64,000 nt of DNA, taken from assembly GCF_036365525.1 (NCBI RefSeq), contig NC_090399.1, positions 5,455,558-5,519,557 on the forward strand, read 5' to 3'. Below the pieces are notes generated by a model, which was not told where the DNA came from, did not search any database, and saw only the letters and a program-made list of their open reading frames with translations. Below are positions 36,263 to 53,734 of the stretch, piece by piece. How positions within the stretch are numbered: position 1 is the first letter of the stretch; every line of letters begins with the position of its first letter. Position numbers and translations under genes: made by a program. The DNA comes from Heterodontus francisci (Eukaryota).

Positions 36263-37205
36263 AAGAGAGTCATAGAGTTATACAGCACAGAAACAGGCCC
36301 TTCGGCCCATTATGTCTGTGCTGGCCATACAACACCCAACTATTCTAATCCCATATTCCTGCACTTTGCCCTTCGCCTTGTATGCTATGGTGTTTCAAGT
36401 GCTCATCTAAATACTTCTTAAATGGTGTGAGGGTTCCTGCTTCTACCACCTCTTCAGGCAGTGTGTTCCAGATTCCAACCACCCTCTGGGTGATAAAATG
36501 CTTCCTAAAATCCCCCCTAAACCTCCTGCCCATAACCATAAATCTATGCCCCCTGGTTATTGACCCCTCTGCTAAAGGAAAAGTTTCTTCCTATCTAACC
36601 TATCAATGCCCCTCATAACCTTGTATACCACAATCATGTCCCTCCTCAGCCTTCTCTGCTCCAAGGAAAACAACCCTAGCCTTTTCAGTCTCTCTTCATA
36701 GCTGAAATGCTCCATCCCAGGCAACATCCTGGTGAATCTCCTCTGCACCCTCTCCGGTGCAGTCACATCCTCCCTATAGTGTGGCGACCAGAACTGTACA
36801 CAGTACTCCAGCTGTGGCCTAACTAGCGTTTTATACAGCTCCATCATAACCTCCCTGCTCTTATATTCCATGCTTCAGCTAATAAAGGCAAGTATCCCAT
36901 ATGCCTTCCTAACCACCTTATCTACCTGTGCTGCTGCCTTCAAGTATACCAAGGTCCCTCTAACCCTCTGTACTTCCGAGGGTCCTGCCATCCATTGCAT
37001 ATTCCCTTGCCTTGTTAGTCCTCCCAAAATGCATTACCTCACACTTTTCAGGATTAAATTCCATTTGCCACTGCTCCGCCCATCTTTCCAGCCCTGCTAT
37101 ATCTCCCTGTAACCTAAGGATTCCCTCCTCACTATTTGCAACACCACCAATTTTCGTGTCATCTGCGAACTTACTGATCATACCTTCTATATTCACGTCT
37201 AATAG
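36263..37205 (-). mobile_element. 5'-truncated, degraded CR1 abutting the exon 5 acceptor
   Basis: Contains FADD and LEYCVQFWSP fragments; the tail ctctatgactctc ends ~12 bp from the acceptor AG. Confidence 0.92.
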
Positions 37206-37877: not shown

Positions 37878-39225
37878 TTAATTAGAATTAGAATTAGAAT
37901 TAGAATATTACAGCGCAGTACAGGCCCTTCGGCCCTCGATGTTGCGCCGATCATCTGACCTACACTATTCCATTTACATCCATATGTCTATCCAATGACC
38001 ACTTAAATGCCCTTAAAGTTGGCGAGTCTACTACTGTTGCAGGCAGGGCGTTCCACGCCCCTACTACTCTCTGCGTAAAGAAACTACCTCTGACATCTGT
38101 CCTATATCTTTCACCCCTCAACTTAAAGCTATGTCCCCTCGTGTTTGCCATCCTCATCCGAGGAAAAAGACTCTCACTATCCACCCTATCTAACCCTCTG
38201 ATTATCTTGTATGTCTCTATTAAGTCACCTCTCCTCCTCCTTCTCTCTAACGAAAACAACCCCAAGTCCCTCAGCCTTTCCTCGTAAGACCTTCCTTCCA
38301 TACCAGGCAACATCCTAGTAAATCTCCTCTGCACCCTTTCCAAAGCTTCGACATCCTTCCTATAATGCGGTGACCAGAACTGCACGCAATACTCCAGGTG
38401 CGGCCTCACCAGAGTTTTGTACAGCTGCATCATGACCCCGTGGCTCTGAAACTCGATCCCCCTACTAATAAAGGCTAACACACCATATGCCTTCTTAACA
38501 GCCCTATTAACCTGGGTAGCAACTTTCAGGGATTTATGTACCTGGATACCAAGATCTCTCTGCTCATCTACACTACCAAGAATCTTCCCATTAGCCCAGT
38601 ACTCTGCATTGCTGTTACTCCTTCCAAAGTGAATCACCTCACACTTCTCCGCATTAAACTCCATTTGCCATCTCTCAGCCCAGCTCTGCAGCCTATCTAT
38701 GTCCCTCTGTACCCTACAACACCCTTCGACACTATCCACAACTCCACCGACCTTCGTGTCATCCGCAAATTTACTAACCCACCCTTCTACACCCTCATCC
38801 AGGTCGTTTATAAAAATGACAAACAGCAGTGGCCCCAAAACAGAACCTTGCGGTACACCACTAGTAACTAAACTCCAGGATGAACATTTGCCATCAACCA
38901 CCACCCTCTGTCTTCTTTCAGCTAGCCAATTTCTGATCCAAAGCTCTAAATCACCTTCAACCCCATACTTCCGTATTTTCTGCAATAGCCTACCGTGGGG
39001 AACCTTATCAAACGCCTTACTGAAATCCATATACACCACATCCACGGCTTTACCCTCATCCACCTGTTTGGTCACCTTCTCGAAAAACTCAATAAGGTTT
39101 GTGAGGCACGACCTACCTTTCACAAAACCGTGCTGACTATCGCAAATCAACTTATTCTTTTCAAGATGATTATAAATCCTGTCTCTTATAACCCTTTCCA
39201 ACATTTTACCCACAACCGAAGTAAG
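37878..39225 (-). mobile_element. 5'-truncated CR1 (417-aa open RT/C-terminal frame) with (TTCTAA)n tail, inserted in a Deu-type SINE
   Basis: ORF 37960-39213 contains QHGF, DFSKAFD, PQGSVLGP, FADD. Tail reads attagaattagaattag on +. Host SINE halves lie at ~37755-37880 and ~39225-39285. Confidence 0.95.
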
Positions 39226-40000: not shown

Positions 40001-41010
40001 CCACAAAGAACAGTACAGCACAGGAACAGGCCATTCGGCCCTCCAAGCCTGCGCCGATCTTGAAGCCTGCCTAAACTAAAACCTTCTGCACTTCCGGGGT
40101 CCGTATCCCTCTATTCCCTTCCTATTCATGTATTTGTCAAGATGCCTCTTAAACGTCGCTATCGTACCTGCTTCCACCACCTCCCCCGGCAGCAAGTTCC
40201 AGGCACTCACCACCCTCTGTGTAAAGAACTTGCCTCGCACATCCCCTCTAAACTTTGCCCCTCTCACCTTAAACCGATGTCCCCTAGTAGCTGACACTTC
40301 CACCCTGGGAAAAAGCTTCTGACTATCCACTCCGTCCATGCTGCTCATAACTTTGTAAACCTCTATCATGTCGCCCCTCCACCTCCATCGTTCCAGTGAA
40401 AACAATCCGAGTTTATCCAATCTCTCCTCATAGCTAATGCCCTCCAGACCAGGCAACATCCTGGTAAACCTCTTCTGTACCCTCTCCAAAGCCTCCACGT
40501 CCTTCTGGTAGTGTGGCGACCAGAATTGCACGCAATATTCTAAGTGTGGCCTAACTAAAGTTCTGTACAGCTGCAGCATGACTTGCCAATTTTTATACTC
40601 TATGCCCCGACCGATGAAGGCAAGCATGCCGAGTGCCTTCTTGACTACCTTATCCACCTGCGTTGTCACTTTCAGTGACCTGTGGACCTGTACGCCCAGA
40701 TCTCTCTGTCTGTCAATACTCCTAAGGGTTCTGCCATTTACTGTATACCTCCCACCTGCATCAGACCTTCCAAAATGCATTACCTCACATTTGTCCGGAT
40801 TAAACTCCATCTGCCATTTCTCCGCCCAAGTCTCCAACCAATCTATATCCTGCTGTATCCTCTGACAATCCTCATCATTATCCGCAACTCCACCAACCTT
40901 TGTGTCGTCCGCAAACTTACTGATCAGACCAGCTACATTTTCCTCCAAATCATTTATATATACTACAAACAGCAAAGGTCCCAGCACTGATCCCTGCGGA
41001 TCACCACTGG
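40001..41010 (-). mobile_element. 5'-truncated CR1 inserted in a second-family LINE
   Basis: ORF 40076-41026 runs from PQGSVLGP/FADD to the C-terminus. The host LINE resumes at 41011. Confidence 0.95.
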
Positions 41011-41074
41011 CCTCCTTGGCCAGCACCTTCCAAACCCGCGACCTCTACCACATAGAAGGACAAGGTAGCAAACC

Positions 41075-46053: not shown

Positions 46054-47080
46054 CAAAGAACAAAGAACAGTACAGCACAGGAACAGGCCATTCGGCCCTC
46101 CAAGCCTGCGCCGATCTTGATGTCTGCCTAAACTAAAACTTTCGGCATTTCCAGGGCCCATATCCCTCTATTCCCATCCTATTCATGTATTTGTCAAGAT
46201 GTCTCTTAAACGTCGCTATCGTATCTGCTTCCACCACCTCCCCTGAGTTCCAGGCACTCACCACCTTCTGTGTAAAGAACGTGCCTCGCACATCCCCTCT
46301 AAACTTTGCCCCTCGCACCTTAAACCTATGTCCCCTGGTAACTGACTCTTCCACCCTGGGAAAAAGCTTCTGACTATCCACTCTGTCCATGCCGCTCATA
46401 GCTTTGTAAACGTCTGTCATGTCACCCCTCCACCTCCGTCGTTCCAGTGAAAATAATCCTGGTTTATCCAACCTCTCCTCATAGCTAATGCCCTCCAGAC
46501 CAGGCAACATCCTGGTAAACCTCTTCTGTACCCTCTCCAAAGCCTCCACGTCCTTCTGGTAGTGTGGCGACCAGAATTGCACGCAATATTCTAAGTGTGG
46601 CCTAACTAAAGTTCTGTACAGCTGCAACATGACTTGCCAATTTTTATACTCTATGCCCCGACCGATGAAGGCAAGCATGCCGTATGCATTCTTGATTACC
46701 TTATCCACCTGCGTTGCCACTTTCAGTGACCTGTGGATCTGTACGCCCAGATCTCTCTGCCTGTCAATACTCCTAAGGGTTCTGCCATTTACTGTATACC
46801 TCCCACCTGCATTAGACCTTCTAAAATGCATTACCTCACATTTGTCCGGATTAAACTCCATCTGCCATTTCTCCGCCCAAGTCTCCAACCGATCTATATC
46901 CTGCTGTATCCTCTGACAATCCTCATCATTATCCGCAACTCCACCAACCTTTGTGTCGTCCGCAAGCTTACTGACCAGACCAGCTACATTTTCCTCCAAA
47001 TCATTTATATATACAACAGCAAAGGTCCCAGCACTGATCCCTGCGGAACACCACTCGTCACATCCCTCCATTCAGAAAAA
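46054..47080 (-). mobile_element. 5'-truncated CR1, close sister of the 40001-41010 copy
   Basis: Near-identical peptide; small deletions, including a frameshift near the 5' end. Confidence 0.95.
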
Positions 47081-47479
47081 CATATCCTTCTGTTAATTTG
47101 GAAGATTAAGAGATGATTTGATCAAAGTTTTCAAGGGTCTGGATTTTATTTTGCTGCCGCCGCTAAAAGATGGCGGCCCGCACGCGCGGGTTTTACTCTG
47201 CAGACTCACTGCAATATTATACGCGGCGGCTCATTTTCATGGCCCCCATGACATGGAGGGGGCAGGTGATCCGTCCCCGGCAACGGCATCGGGCATCATT
47301 GTGCATTTTTAAAGGGCATCAACTTCTTCCATTGAATTTGAATTTTTAAAGTCATAAATGTAACGTAAAAAATGTAATAAAAGATTCAAGCACCTCTCCC
47401 ACCCCACCCCCGCAATGGCCAAACAATTTATCAACTGCTCTCTTCCACCCCCCCCCCCCCTCAAATAAAACTTATCTTG

Positions 47480-48259
47480 CGCGATGCTGAGGAGGTCGTG
47501 GATAGCACGTTTAGTGAATTGGTCACACCGCAGATTAGGATTGCTGAGGGAGAAAGGGAATGGGTGACCAAAAGGCAGAGAAAGAGCAGGAAGGCAGCGC
47601 AGGAGTCCCCTGCGGTCATCTCCCTCCAAAACAAGTATACCATTTTGGATACTGTTGAGGGAGATGGCTCACCAGGGGAAGGCAGCAGTAGCCAGGTCCA
47701 TGGCACCGTGGCTGGCTCTGCTGTTCCGAAGGGCGGGAAAAAGAGTGGAAGGGCTATAGTCGTAGGGGATTCGATTGTAAGGGGAGTAGATAGGCGGTTC
47801 TGTGGTCGAAAACGAGGCTCCCGAATGGTATGTTGCCTCCCAGGTGCACGGGTCAGGGACGTCTCAGATCGGCTGCAGAACATTCTAAAGGGGGAGGGTG
47901 AACAGCCAGTTGTCATTGTGCACATAGGCACTAATGATATAGGTAAAAAACGGGATGAGGTCCTACATGCAGAGTTTAGGGAGTTAGGAGCCAGGTTAAA
48001 AAGTAGGACCTCAAAGGTAGTAATCTCAGGATTACTACCAGTGCCATGTGATAGTCAGAGTAAAAATGAAAGAATAGTCAGGATGAATGCGTGGCTTGAG
48101 AGATGGTGCAGGAAGGAGGGGTTCAGATTTTTGGGACATTGGGACCGGTTCTGGGGGAGGTGGGACTATTACAAATTGGACGGTCTACACCTGGGCCGGA
48201 CAGGAACCAATGTCCTTGGGGGTGCTTTTGCTAACGCTGTTGGGGAGGGTTTAAACTAA
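47480..48259 (+). CDS. CR1 ORF1p, C-terminal part: SGNH/GDSL esterase-like domain (no native start codon)
   Basis: Blocks IVVGDSIVR, CLPGA, HIGTND, DGLHL; ends EGLN-TAA. Confidence 0.9.
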   Translation, partial: RDAEEVVDSTFSELVTPQIRIAEGEREWVTKRQRKSRKAAQESPAVISLQNKYTILDTVEGDGSPGEGSSSQVHGTVAGSAVPKGGKKSGRAIVVGDSIVRGVDRRFCGRKRGSRMVCCLPGARVRDVSDRLQNILKGEGEQPVVIVHIGTNDIGKKRDEVLHAEFRELGARLKSRTSKVVISGLLPVPCDSQSKNERIVRMNAWLERWCRKEGFRFLGHWDRFWGRWDYYKLDGLHLGRTGTNVLGGAFANAVGEGLN

Positions 48260-51213
48260 TGTGGCAGGGGGATGGGAACCAATTGAGGTCAGTTGACAGT
48301 AAGGAGGTAGTAACAAAAGCCTGTAAGGAACTAGATAATGAAGTCAGTGTGACTAAGGGGAAGAGCAGGCAGGGAGCAGATGATGAATATAAAGGGACTG
48401 GTGGTCTGAGGTGCATTTGTTTTAATGCAAGAAGTGTAGTAGGTAAGGCAGATGAACTTAGGGCTTGGATTAGTACCTGGGAGTATGATGTTATTGCTAT
48501 TACTGAGACTTGGTTGAGGGAAGGGCATGATTGGCAACTAAATATCCCAGGATATCGATGCTTCAGGCGGGATAGAGAGGGAGGTAAAAGGGGTGGAGGA
48601 GTTGCATTACTGGTCAAAGAGGATATCACAGCTGTGCTGAAGGAGGGCACTATGGAGGACTCGAGCAGTGAGGCAATATGGACAGAACTCAGAAATAGGA
48701 AGGGTGCGGTAACAATGTTGGGGCTGTACTACAGGCCTCCCAACAGCGAGCGTGAGATAGAGGTACAAATATGTAAACAGATTATGGAAAGATGTAGGAG
48801 CAACAGGGTGGTGGTGATAGGAGATTTTAATTTTCCCAACATTGACTGGGATTCGCTTAATGTTAGAGGTCCAGATGGAGCAGAATTTGTAAGGAGCATC
48901 CAGGAGGGTTTTCTAGAGCAGTATGTAAATAGTCCAACTCGGGAAGGGGCCATACTGGACCTGGTGTTGGGGAATGAGCCCGGCCAGGTTGTTGAAGTTT
49001 CAGTAGGGGACTACTTTGGGAATAGTGATCACAATTCCGTAAGCTTTAAAATACTCATGGACAAAGACGAGAGTGGTCCAAAAGGGAGAGTGCTAAATTG
49101 GGGGAAGGCCAACTACACCAAAATTCGGCAGGAGCTGGGAAATGTAGATTGGGAGCAGCTGTTTGAAGGTAAATCCACATGTGATATGTGGGAGGCTTTT
49201 AAAGAGAGGTTGATTAGCATGCAGGAGAGACATGTTCCTGTGAAAATGAGGGATAGAAATGGCAAGATTAGGGAACCATGGATGACAGGTGAAATTGTGA
49301 GACTAGCTAAGAGGAAAAAGGAAGCATACATAAGGTCTAGGCGGCTGATGAAAGACGAAGCTTTGAAAGAATATCGGGAATGTAGGACCAATCTGAAACG
49401 AGGAATTAAGAGGGCTAAAAGGGGTCATGAAATATCTTTAGCAAACAGGGTTAAGGAAAATCCCAAAGCCTTTTATTCATATATAAGGAGAAAGAGGGTA
49501 ACGAGAGAAAGGATTGGCCCACTAAAGGACAAAGGAGGAATGTTATGCTTGGACTCAGAGAAAATGGGTGAGATTCTAAACGAGTACTTTGCATCGGTAT
49601 TCACCGAGGAGAGGGACATGACGGATGTTGAGGTTAGGAACAGATGTTTGATTACTCTAGGTCAAGTCGGCATAAGGAGGGAGGAAGTGTTGGGTATTCT
49701 AAAGGGCATTAAGGTGGACAAGTCCCCAGGTCCAGATGGGATCTATCCCAGGTTACTGAGGGAAGCGAGAGAGGAAATAGCTGGGGCCTTAACAGATATC
49801 TTTGCAGCATCCTTAAACACGGGTGAGGTCCCGGAGGACTGGAGAATTGCTAATGTTGTCCCCTTGTTTAAGAAGGGTAGCAGGGATAATCCAGGTAATT
49901 ATAGACCGGTGAGCCTGACGTCAGTGGTAGGGAAGCTGCTGGAGAAGATACTGAGGGATAGGATCTATTCCCATTTGGAAGAAAATGGGCTCATCAGTGA
50001 TAGGCAACATGGTTTTGTGCAGGGAAGGTCATGTCTTACCAACTTAATAGAATTCTTTGAGGAAGTGACAAAGTTGATTGATGAGGGAAGGGCTGTCGAT
50101 GTCATATACATGGACTTCAGTAAGGCGTTTGATAAGGTTCCCCATGGCAGGCTGATGGAGAAAGTGAAGGCGCATGGGGTCCAAGGTGTACTAGCTAGAT
50201 GGATAAAGAACTGGCTGGGCAACAGGAGACAGAGAGTAGCAGTAGAAGGGAGTTTCTCAAAATGGAGACGTGTGACCAGTGGTGTTCCACAGGGATCCGT
50301 GCTGGGACCACTGTTGTTTGTGATATACATTAATGATTTGGAGGAAAGTATAGGTGGACTGATTAGCAAATTTGCAGACGACACTAAGATTGGTGGAGTA
50401 GCAGATAGTGAAGGGGACTGTCAGAGAATACAGCAGAATATAGATAGATTGGAGAGTTGGGCAGAGAAATGGCAGATGGAGTTCAATCAGGGCAAATGCG
50501 AGGTGATGCATTTTGGAAGATCCAATTCAAGAGTGAACTATACAGTAAATGGAAAAGTCCTGGGGAAAATTGATGTCCAGAGAGATTTGGGTGTTCAGGT
50601 CCACTGTTCCCTGAAGGTGGCAACGCAGGTAAATAGAGTGGTCAAGAAGGCATACGGCATGCTTTCCTTCATCGGACGGGGCATTGAGTACAAGAGTTGG
50701 CAGGTCATGTTACAGTTGTATAGGACTTTGGTTCGGCCACATTTGGAATACTGCGTACAGTTCTGGTCGCCACATTATCAAAAGGATGTGGATGCTTTGG
50801 AGAGGGTGCAGAGGAGGTTCACCAGGATGTTGCCTGGTATGGAGGGCGCTAGCTATGAAGAGAGGTTGAGCAGATTAGGATTATTTTCATTAGAAAGACG
50901 GAGGTTGAGGGGGGACCTGATTGAGGTGTACAAAATCATGAGAGGTATAGACAGGGTGGATAGCAAGAGGCTTTTTCCCAGAGTGGGGGTTTCAATTACT
51001 AGAGGACACGAGTTCAAAGTGAAAGGGGAAAAGTTTAGGGGGGATATGCGTGGAAAGTTCTTTACGCAGAGGGTGGTGGGCACCTGGAACGCATTGCCAG
51101 CGGAGGTGGTAGATGCGGGCACGATGGAGTCTTTTAAGATGTATCTAGACAGATACATGAATGGGCAGGAAGAAAAGAGATACAGAACCTTAGAAAATAG
51201 GCGACATGTTTAG
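48259..51213 (+). CDS. CR1 ORF2p: APE endonuclease + reverse transcriptase, 984 aa
   Basis: EN motifs NARS, ITETW, YRPP, GDFN, SDH; RT motifs KSPGPDG, NYRPVSL, QHGF, DFSKAFD, GVPQGSVLGP, FADD. No stops. Confidence 0.97.
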   Translation: MWQGDGNQLRSVDSKEVVTKACKELDNEVSVTKGKSRQGADDEYKGTGGLRCICFNARSVVGKADELRAWISTWEYDVIAITETWLREGHDWQLNIPGYRCFRRDREGGKRGGGVALLVKEDITAVLKEGTMEDSSSEAIWTELRNRKGAVTMLGLYYRPPNSEREIEVQICKQIMERCRSNRVVVIGDFNFPNIDWDSLNVRGPDGAEFVRSIQEGFLEQYVNSPTREGAILDLVLGNEPGQVVEVSVGDYFGNSDHNSVSFKILMDKDESGPKGRVLNWGKANYTKIRQELGNVDWEQLFEGKSTCDMWEAFKERLISMQERHVPVKMRDRNGKIREPWMTGEIVRLAKRKKEAYIRSRRLMKDEALKEYRECRTNLKRGIKRAKRGHEISLANRVKENPKAFYSYIRRKRVTRERIGPLKDKGGMLCLDSEKMGEILNEYFASVFTEERDMTDVEVRNRCLITLGQVGIRREEVLGILKGIKVDKSPGPDGIYPRLLREAREEIAGALTDIFAASLNTGEVPEDWRIANVVPLFKKGSRDNPGNYRPVSLTSVVGKLLEKILRDRIYSHLEENGLISDRQHGFVQGRSCLTNLIEFFEEVTKLIDEGRAVDVIYMDFSKAFDKVPHGRLMEKVKAHGVQGVLARWIKNWLGNRRQRVAVEGSFSKWRRVTSGVPQGSVLGPLLFVIYINDLEESIGGLISKFADDTKIGGVADSEGDCQRIQQNIDRLESWAEKWQMEFNQGKCEVMHFGRSNSRVNYTVNGKVLGKIDVQRDLGVQVHCSLKVATQVNRVVKKAYGMLSFIGRGIEYKSWQVMLQLYRTLVRPHLEYCVQFWSPHYQKDVDALERVQRRFTRMLPGMEGASYEERLSRLGLFSLERRRLRGDLIEVYKIMRGIDRVDSKRLFPRVGVSITRGHEFKVKGEKFRGDMRGKFFTQRVVGTWNALPAEVVDAGTMESFKMYLDRYMNGQEEKRYRTLENRRHV

Positions 51214-53734
51214 AGAGAGGATCTGGATCGGCGCAGGCTTGGAGGGCCGAAGGGCCTGTTCCTGTGCTGTAATTATCTTTGTTCTTTGTTCTTTGTTCTT
51301 GTTCTTTGCGATCCCAACCTTCTGCCCCTCCCAAAGTTTATAAACTATGATCTTTATCTCTTCCCACCACCCCCGAGACCAATCGAAAACATTTAACCCT
51401 GTTTCCCACCCCCCCCGCCCCTCCACTGACCCCAAGCCTGATCCCCCTCCCCTCCCCAAACCAGTCTTCCGCCTCGGATCTCTGAATGGAGATTCGAATG
51501 CCCGGGAATGCCGGAAACCTACCTCAATATCGCAGCTGGACAGCCATTCGGAGCAGGTAAGTCATTAATTCAGTCATTTTAATTAATTACCATATTTAAA
51601 TACTGCTCCCATTGCCGAGTGGCGGCGGGTGGGGGAGTGAGGGAGGTGCCGTCATGAGGCTTCACTGCCGCTGGCAATACGGGGCCTCGCCTTCCCGGCA
51701 TCGAGGCCCGAGGTGGGCATTTTCCGGGGTCCCCCCCGCCATGACCCCCAATGTTGGGAGCTCGGTAAAACCCAGTCCGAGATATTAAGGGGAATTGATA
51801 GGGTAGAGAGAGAAATTATTACCACCGGATGGAGAGTCTAGAACTGGGGAACATAGACTAAAAATTAGAGTTAGACCTTTCAGCAGTGAAATTAGGAAAG
51901 ACTTCTGCAACATAAAGGATGGTAGAAGTTTGGAACTCTCTCCCTCAAATGGCAACTGATGCCAGATTAATTATTAATTTTAAATCTGCAAAAGCTGGTA
52001 TGTGGAGTTCAGTCACTGATCAACCGTGACCTCATTGAACAGCAGAACAAACTCAAGAAGCTTAAATGGCCTCTTCCTCTTCCCATGTCCCGACGTTCCT
52101 TTCTCCCTCGTTTATCCAGCTTCCCCTTAAGTGCATCTCTTTACTCCTCTCAACCGCTCCCTGTGTTAGCCAATTCCACACTCTCACCGTTCTCTGGGTA
52201 AAAAAGTTTCTCCTGAATTCCCGATTGGATTTATTACTGACTCTCTTCGATGGACTGAATGGCCTCCTTCTGTGCTGTAATTTTTCTGTGGTTCTATTTT
52301 TTTTTCTATTTGTGGCCCCTAATTCTGGTCTCGCCCACAAGTGGAGGTGTCGTCTCTCCAGAGATGTGCGAAGACAGGTACGTTAGGAAGACCAGCAGGA
52401 ATGCTTTTTAATAAAGAATGGATTTTTCATGTTCGCGATTCTGTTTTTGGGGCTACAAACAGAATCTATTGATGAAAGGAAATATCTGTAAAACGTGACA
52501 GGCCAACTGAAATCAGTAAATCCCCTCTGTACAACAGTTGTCATATAGCCACATGCGGCTCCAATTTAAAGAAAGGGAAAAAACAGCTTTTATGCAACAT
52601 CTTTCCTGATCTCAAAACATTCTGAAGTGCTTTACAGCCAAGGAAACAATGTTTGAAGTCTAGTCACTGTCGTGATGTCGGCAGTCAATTTGTGCACAGC
52701 AAGATCCCACGAAGGGCAATGTGACAAGTGACCAGATGAACTGTTTCAGTGATGATGGTTGAGGGACAAGTATTGACACCAGGGAGAACTCCCCTGTTCT
52801 TCTTCAAAATAGTGGGACCATTTATGTCTGTCTGAGAGGGCAGACGAGGCCTCGGTTTAACATCGCATCCGAAAGACGGCACCTCCAACAGTGGAGCACT
52901 CCCTCAGTACTGCACTGGAGTGGGACTTGAACTCACAACCTCCGACTCAGCAGGGAGTGTGACCTTGGCTGCTAGTCATTCACTAACAGTGTCCCCAGAG
53001 TATCCAGAATGCTTGGCTCAGCTGTTATATTACTGGAGACCACCTCCCCACAATTCACCCCACGCCCCCACCCCAAAGAAAATCAACTCAATTACCTGAT
53101 CTCCCATCTCCCGGATGCTGGAGAAGAATAGATCCCAAAAAAAGATCTCACTTACCTCCTTCCGACACCACGCCCTCCCCTCTCCTGACCCAGGAGAGTA
53201 GCGACTATTTCATTCAGATTCTCTGTTGCTGTGGGCTGCCCACTGGCACTGACTCCACGGCTGGGTTTTAAGCAATTCAGACAGGTGGACAAGCAATAAG
53301 GAACAGGAGGAGACCCATCAGCCCCTCCAACTCATTCCGCCATTCAAATAACTGAGGGCTGATCTGTATTTTCATTCCATTTATCCACCTTAACACCTAA
53401 CAAAAATCGATCAATCTCAGTTATGACATTTCTACTTGACCCCCCCAGTCTCAACAGCTTTTTGGGGGAGAGAGTTACAGATTTCCACTACTCCCTGTGG
53501 AGAAATGTTTCCTGATATCATCCCTGAACGGCCTTGGCTCTAATGGTGAGGCTGTGCCCCCTTGTTCTGATTTCCTGCTCACACTCGATTCCATTCGGTG
53601 TGAACAGCCTTGTGTGTAGTGCTCTGTATAACTCCTCCTGTCAGTGACACTAACCCAGATTTCAAACCCACCATCCCAGGGCACCTTGACAATTTGAAAT
53701 CAGTTTCAAAAAAAGTTGCAAATAAAAAAAGAAC

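Follow-up and report, generated by a model that had tools for sequence, protein, structure and literature searches.

A conserved slippery heptamer at the ORF1/ORF2 junction of esterase-type CR1 elements points to probable programmed -1 frameshifting

A young copy of a CR1 long interspersed nuclear element (LINE) lies on the forward strand at 47478..51308 of the window analysed here, a stretch of 64,000 nucleotides (nt) from Heterodontus francisci (contig NC_090399.1, positions 5,455,558 to 5,519,557). It has the characteristics of a CR1 member of the esterase type. The first open reading frame (ORF1) encodes an esterase, given as the CR1 ORF1 type in PMC13343379, and the second (ORF2) encodes by Pfam an APE endonuclease (Exo_endo_phos, about 48421-49032) and a reverse transcriptase (RT; RVT_1, about 49876-50541). 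The 3′ end consists of short tandem repeats of the TTCTTTG type with no poly(A), and the 5′ end is truncated at about 47478, so that the first 167 nt of ORF1 are absent, including the AUG. In six sibling copies the full-length ORF1 is 315 amino acids. Because its start has been removed, full translation of the window copy itself is improbable, and it instead records the design of its family. The nearest named homologues are those of sharks and rays, and the junction of the two frames closely resembles, in a comparison by eye, that of the consensus labelled ScyCan_CR1-1a. A target-site duplication was looked for around the copy and none was found. The features of the element are collected in Table 1.

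The end of ORF1 reads GAG GGT TTA AAC TAA. This places the heptamer T_TTA_AAC (48250-48256) in the X_XXY_YYZ phase, immediately before the stop codon at 48257-48259. Across the junction the -1 frame reads TTT AAA CTA ATG TGG, and it is open from 48235 to 51213. A -1-frame stop at 48232..48234 holds the overlap of the two frames to 22 nt, within which there is no AUG. A sequence-only reading of this stretch had recognized the phased heptamer and equated the -1 frame with ORF2, and both observations are confirmed by the letters; the frame comprises 992 open codons and carries both ORF2 domains. That reading went on to suggest that frameshifting makes a fusion of ORF1 with the endonuclease and RT, for which the comparisons below provide support. 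TTTAAAC is common by itself, with four matches on the plus strand and nine on the minus strand of the 64-kb window. A single occurrence thus proves nothing, and the case rests on conservation.

In the 6.0 Gb genome the counts are weighted by copy number and the families are related. Of 35,908 copies ending Leu-Asn-TRR, 33,691 (93.8%) have T_TTA_AAC exactly, these being copies with D-G-L-H-L followed by the heptamer and TRR. An internal control is provided by the Leu-Asn of the D-G-L-H-L-N motif 60 nt upstream, which is TTA-AAC in just 1,299 of 43,448 (3.0%). The same is seen in 17 family representatives from this genome. These were picked by hand after a first clustering (34 clusters, a number inflated by truncated copies) was replaced; some came from a list requiring Leu-Asn-TRR but no particular codons, and decayed copies with an altered heptamer (L080, L121, L136, L142, L024) were kept out. 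In the codon table (n = 16, family Q being left out for a 2-nt deletion) the last leucine of ORF1 is TTA in 16/16, compared with 2/16, 0/16 and 0/15 for three other conserved leucine columns. The third base of the preceding codon is T in 16/16, across five different residues (G, D, S, A and V). If slippage is used, the heptamer should be kept beyond the coding of Leu-Asn, and the relatives should have ORF2 open in the -1 frame even where there is no ATG; the family representatives have no synonymous variation within the heptamer, and the other two expectations also came out in favour. On these comparisons the heptamer is fixed beyond the need of the protein.

Loci selected in other ways present the same arrangement. 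Among 30 chosen only by an upstream motif, seven of which look like tandem duplicates, TTTAAAC is present in 28 and TAATG in none, and the endonuclease is in the -1 frame in 23, the remaining seven being broken downstream. In a second set ORF2 is in the -1 frame in 27/30. On 48227-48281 there is a pile-up of contigs from runs belonging to six coded organisms, the contig ends hanging loose at 48227-43 and at 48271-89, and no alternative letter is listed at a 5% cut between 48250 and 48281; this conservation arises partly by construction, as the contigs must resemble the stretch, and the RNA status of the runs is a guess. The segment 48224-48249, about eight codons before the heptamer that include the -1-frame stop, also has low synonymous variation and may be part of the signal. 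Seven near-identical copies of family H (L110-L116, G000:C1:71743-183236) lie about 18-19 kb apart, a likely tandem segmental duplication, and in L138 the junction of heptamer, stop and G-run is itself duplicated in tandem.

How might translation of ORF2 begin? In the window copy the ORF1 stop overlaps an ATG as TAATG, the signal of SART1, and termination-reinitiation is consequently the rival to beat. As the sole route it would generate a separate ORF2 protein (ORF2p), from the overlapping AUG as in SART1 or, in the other families, without an AUG as in L1. Translation of L1 ORF2 is independent of AUG. Passages of PMC2881922 and PMC3708506 describe reinitiation as a tested mechanism of both elements, and it is further favoured here by the TAATG of the window copy and of 5,911 copies, and by the adjacency of the ORF1 stop and the ORF2 start in all families. 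Yet the UAAUG is not kept in the lineage, as coupling of the SART1 type would have it. It occurs in 5,911/33,691 heptamer copies, with the 100 listed matches all looking like the family of the window copy, and in 1/17 representatives, that of the same family alone, so that the AUG is absent from 16/17. The junction of a sister family is TAG-TG, from which an AUG can arise by a change of stop codon. The AUG of the window copy's family thus probably arose incidentally when TAG changed to TAA, and it may contribute some reinitiation. In copies L164, L168, L178 and L179 of family I there are 966 open codons from the heptamer, and the first methionine is codon 67. This falls after the N-A-R motif of the endonuclease (codon 52), i.e. 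inside that domain. No near-cognate start was found at a shared position among seven families. The overlapping AUG is thus a minority state, and by these sequences ORF2 does not need it. Moreover, reinitiation does not predict the fixed TTA, the fixed T before it, the fixed -1 frame or the X_XXA_AAC swaps discussed below, and the downstream structure that SART1 requires, according to passages of PMC3708506, is absent here. As the only route to ORF2p it is improbable; that it operates beside frameshifting in the TAATG family is less remote, although still unlikely.

We also considered whether a TAC variant (L019, L022 and L025) was a lineage that had spread with neither stop nor AUG. This was rejected; the flanks are common to the three at 98.5-99.1%, so they are duplicates of one insertion. 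L171, L172 and L173 represent one TAA-to-TAC insertion, duplicated with its flanks on three contigs.

In most families, then, an open -1 frame with no usable AUG of its own overlaps the end of ORF1 at a phased heptamer that is conserved at synonymous sites and abuts the stop codon. We consider it likely, from the pattern of conservation, that programmed -1 frameshifting on U_UUA_AAC makes an ORF1-ORF2 fusion in this CR1 lineage. Most ribosomes would stop at the end of ORF1, releasing abundant free ORF1 protein (ORF1p). In a minority, tRNA-Leu and tRNA-Asn would each step back by one base on the last two codons, and these ribosomes would read 985 further codons, the chain running from G-L-N into L-M-W-Q-G. 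The product would be a minor fusion of esterase, endonuclease and RT of about 1,300 amino acids. The pause might come from slow termination at the adjacent stop together with the G-run at +11 to +15, and we tentatively suggest that the latter would probably act through a bound protein, and not through an RNA fold.

The junction is also found beyond the H. francisci genome. Heptamer, stop and G-run are kept in the distant loci L091 (43% ORF1 identity), which has ORF2 in the -1 frame with no AUG, and L104 and L105 (34-35%), while L092 has G_TTA_AAC in place of T_TTA_AAC. All four are metagenome or metagenome-assembled genome (MAG) contigs from some animal host. The CR1 sequence found under the labels Pseudomonas aeruginosa and a Metamycoplasmataceae MAG (P0004; L104, L105) is likely to be contamination from an animal host. 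Of 20 matches to the heptamer followed by TAA or TAG in the consensus table of PMC13343379, 17 sit at the end of ORF1 as judged by eye and without frames; the consensuses are noisy, and the matches indicate presence, not frequency. The labels, as read, include alligator, crocodile, coelacanth, bowfin, chimaera, bullfrog, a teleost, sharks and rays, and in a lizard consensus the heptamer is followed by TGA. No bird or turtle entry with the heptamer was seen among these matches. TTTAAAC at the end of ORF1 in bird and turtle CR1, as suggested in the sequence-only reading, was thus seen in no named bird or turtle record; the crocodilian and lizard consensuses do carry it. Searches of the supplements of PMC2734521 and PMC11303007 gave no matches, that of PMC4316615 (file 1 excluded) gave two, both in the 3′ region of ORF2 only, and there were none in a metagenome scan with a single protein or among viral contigs.

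The protein ends can be followed further. Of 100 homologous ORF1s whose ends lie 22-36 residues past the catalytic Asp, 90 terminate in L-N. By contrast 9 of 13 distant loci are esterase LINEs with neither the L-N ending nor the -1 overlap, showing that the enzyme does not need L-N. One distant esterase LINE, L096, has a long ORF1 tail and ORF2 in the -1 frame with no AUG; its ORF1 ends G_GAT_TTT CAC TAA, which may be a further shift site. The best 150 cluster representatives gave 118 tails, of which 54 end in L-N, 11 in G-N and three in K-N, the distant endings being Q/S/A-G-N or S/A-K-N. If the heptamer has the form X_XXA_AAC, the codon of the residue before L-N should end in U, that before G-N in G and that before K-N in A. 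In 82 dereplicated tails the preceding residue agrees in 37/37 L-N, 10/10 G-N and 4/4 K-N cases (three of the K-N being internal). Residues whose codons end only in pyrimidines occur 19 times before L-N and never before G-N or K-N, while the corresponding numbers for purine-only residues are 0 and 9. Within a supported clade of a tree of 80 rows, S-G-N is sister to S-K-N and F-L-N is nested among Q-G-N, giving about three independent switches of ending. The distant endings are fitting for swaps to G_GGA_AAC and A_AAA_AAC, as deduced from protein, and a portion of PMC5009743 places these two and U_UUA_AAC among the shiftiest heptamers. Within the Q-G-N group there is a clade (P0240, P0269, P0278) that ends F-F-H or F-F-R, perhaps at a U-rich shift site. 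Four database proteins (P0074, P0078, P0081, P0305) continue past the esterase into the frame of ORF2; we rejected these as evidence of fusion, as they are gene models or copies with an indel.

Could the two frames fix these letters with no slippage at all? The genetic code does allow ORF1 L-N and an ORF2 starting F-K-L in the 22-nt overlap to force TTTAAAY jointly, and the -1 frame begins with F-K-L in 20 of 21 rows. Such dual coding is nevertheless very improbable, because the overlap has no AUG and its remaining -1 codons vary, L-N is dispensable in other esterase LINEs, and the G-N and K-N endings would alter F-K-L. Least probable of all is a signal in RNA or DNA: the CAG at +9 to +11 (CAG/G being common in this genome's families) would make a splice acceptor with no pyrimidine tract before it and C at +9 in only 12/20, polymerase slippage would have to act on homopolymer runs just three long, TTTAAA as a palindrome for dimerisation is lost in the inferred G and A variants, and, as a weaker point, no joint or indel crossing the junction is listed for the contigs of four runs, the RNA status of these runs being a guess.

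In its stimulator this junction departs from the classical pattern. What is kept downstream is the adjacent stop at +1 and the G-run at +11 to +15. The sequence-only reading saw no convincing pseudoknot, in agreement with the absence of a local fold at the junction (z +0.22 to +0.67). It proposed as possible stimulators the stop codon directly 3′ and a G-tract about 6 nt downstream forming a two-tier G-quadruplex. The tract begins with GG at 48263, 7 nt after the heptamer, and the run of five G at +11. The G-run is indeed conserved, but the quadruplex is not and was rejected, the two-tier pattern occurring in 10/21 rows and a three-tier one in 0/21. No stable helix was found at 5-9 nt downstream as a stem-loop or pseudoknot, with no pseudoknot program run. 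Four recurring sites were tested for cognate preference in long-range pairing with the G-run. There was none with the 3′ end (p = 0.97, five families), the CCLPG codons (p = 0.91, seven families) or the SP motif (p = 0.67, three families). The QGSVLGP codons gave p = 0.025 (five families); this candidate was rejected, as the registers differ and it fails correction for four tests.

A number of points weigh against frameshifting as we have described it. The chief weakness is the lack of a canonical structure: across the representatives no fold is found downstream of the heptamer (z -1.7 to +1.3), no long-range partner is supported among the four sites, the 3′ end included, and the G-run sits beyond the usual 5-9 nt spacer (spacer from passages of PMC7618472). 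An in-frame AUG precedes the endonuclease in family L and in L092, the TAATG of the window copy's family is the SART1 coupling signal, and it has been argued, in passages of PMC3708506, that ORF1 needs to be produced apart from ORF2. The families are related, the counts copy-weighted and the representatives hand-picked. For the swaps, 31/82 dereplicated tails fit none of the three ending classes, the G-N and K-N cases come from protein alone, and with about three switches the Fisher p of 1e-7 for the preceding residue overstates independence. Taking all of this together, the feature is real and deeply conserved, and most likely a non-canonical form of programmed -1 frameshift. A wider view is that vertebrate esterase CR1s and distant lineages express RT solely as a fusion resembling gag-pol, by way of an ancient -1 frameshift with swapped heptamers (U_UUA_AAC, G_GGA_AAC, A_AAA_AAC) and a structure-free signal of stop and G-run that is read by a protein, possibly ORF1p. 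This we put forward tentatively, as a possibility that we would not yet call probable.

The proposed mechanism has parallels in several known systems. Coronavirus ORF1a/1b has the same U_UUA_AAC (a portion of PMC5009743) in the same phase, a -1 overlap and the polymerase in the second frame, but there a pseudoknot follows a 5-9 nt spacer, in contrast to the abutting stop and G-run, with no fold, of CR1. In retroviral and long terminal repeat (LTR) gag-pol a structural first frame is likewise fused at low frequency to RT, so fixing their ratio; CR1 differs in being a non-LTR element, using target-primed reverse transcription, with an esterase ORF1. Pfam gave no protease domain in the CR1 frames, so that the fusion may stay uncut. 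There is some precedent for frameshifting in a LINE. In the Dictyostelium elements TRE5-A and TRE3-A, APE-type non-LTR elements that differ from CR1 in clade and ORF1, a -1 frameshift is required for ORF2 according to a figure legend in the review PMC5911963. The UAAUG coupling of SART1 and the reinitiation of L1 resemble the window family in its TAATG and bicistronic LINE RNA, but unlike these the AUG is absent from most CR1 representatives, the heptamer and frame are fixed and there is no downstream structure. Signals beyond the usual spacer occur in PRRSV (nsp1beta/PCBP) and in cardioviruses (2A), at 13-14 nt in the latter (passages of PMC7618472). The CR1 signal is G-rich, not C-rich or a stem-loop, and with its binding protein putative the likeness is one of analogy only.

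A literature search of titles and abstract openings gave no report of CR1 frameshifting, though a comment on the overlap may exist in the original papers on CR1 or in the notes of Repbase. The main text of PMC13343379 makes no mention of a frameshift, overlap or start codon, the passages covered of PMC2734521 contain nothing on the junction, and the portion covered of PMC5009743 does not mention CR1. Reviews, in the parts covered, put translation of LINE ORF2 as reinitiation or as unclear (PMC5009743, PMC2881922, PMC3708506). The analysis adds the genome-wide internal control, the AUG as a minority state, the heptamer swaps and the negative test of pairing with the 3′ end.

The window contains further CR1 3′ fragments on the minus strand, at 46054-47081, 40003-41011, 37978-39225, 36396-37202 and 1717-2058. 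These five have 61-87% amino acid identity to ORF2, and none extends to the ORF1/ORF2 junction.

Table 1. Features of the CR1 copy in the H. francisci window.
Feature	Positions	Strand	Observation
CR1 copy	47478..51308	+	97.6-99.4% identity to full-length copies; match start at 47478 in 6/6
ORF1 remnant, ending G-L-N-stop	47478..48259	+	GDSL/SGNH esterase domain about 47762-48205 (PF13472, E 4e-14)
Nucleotide conservation island at junction	48227..48281	+	Contig pile-up, runs of six coded organisms
-1-frame stop TAA	48232..48234	+	25 nt 5′ of ORF1 stop; same place in 6/7 family copies checked
ORF2, -1 frame	48235..51213	+	992 open codons, 985 after the shift site
Slippery heptamer U_UUA_AAC, predicted -1 shift site	48250..48256	+	Phase and conservation
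ORF1 stop TAA, directly 3′ of heptamer	48257..48259	+	TA at +1/+2 in 20/20 representatives
ATG overlapping ORF1 stop as TAATG	48259..48261	+	Particular to the window copy's family
G-run GGGGG-AT-GGG, candidate unstructured stimulator	48267..48276	+	G at +12 in 20/20 and at +18 in 19/20 representatives
3′ untranslated region	51214..51308	+	Conserved 3′ motif 51244-51256 and terminal repeats

According to PMC13343379, retrotransposons of the CR1 group dominate in most vertebrates. If their ORF2 is expressed by frameshifting, the active enzyme would bear the zinc finger, coiled coil and esterase of ORF1, and ORF2 annotations that begin at an internal methionine would be wrong. The ratio of ORF1p to ORF2p would be set as it is in retroviruses, and CR1 would become accessible to host factors that counter frameshifting, such as Shiftless. 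Together these junctions would form a large family of natural -1 signals that lack structure.

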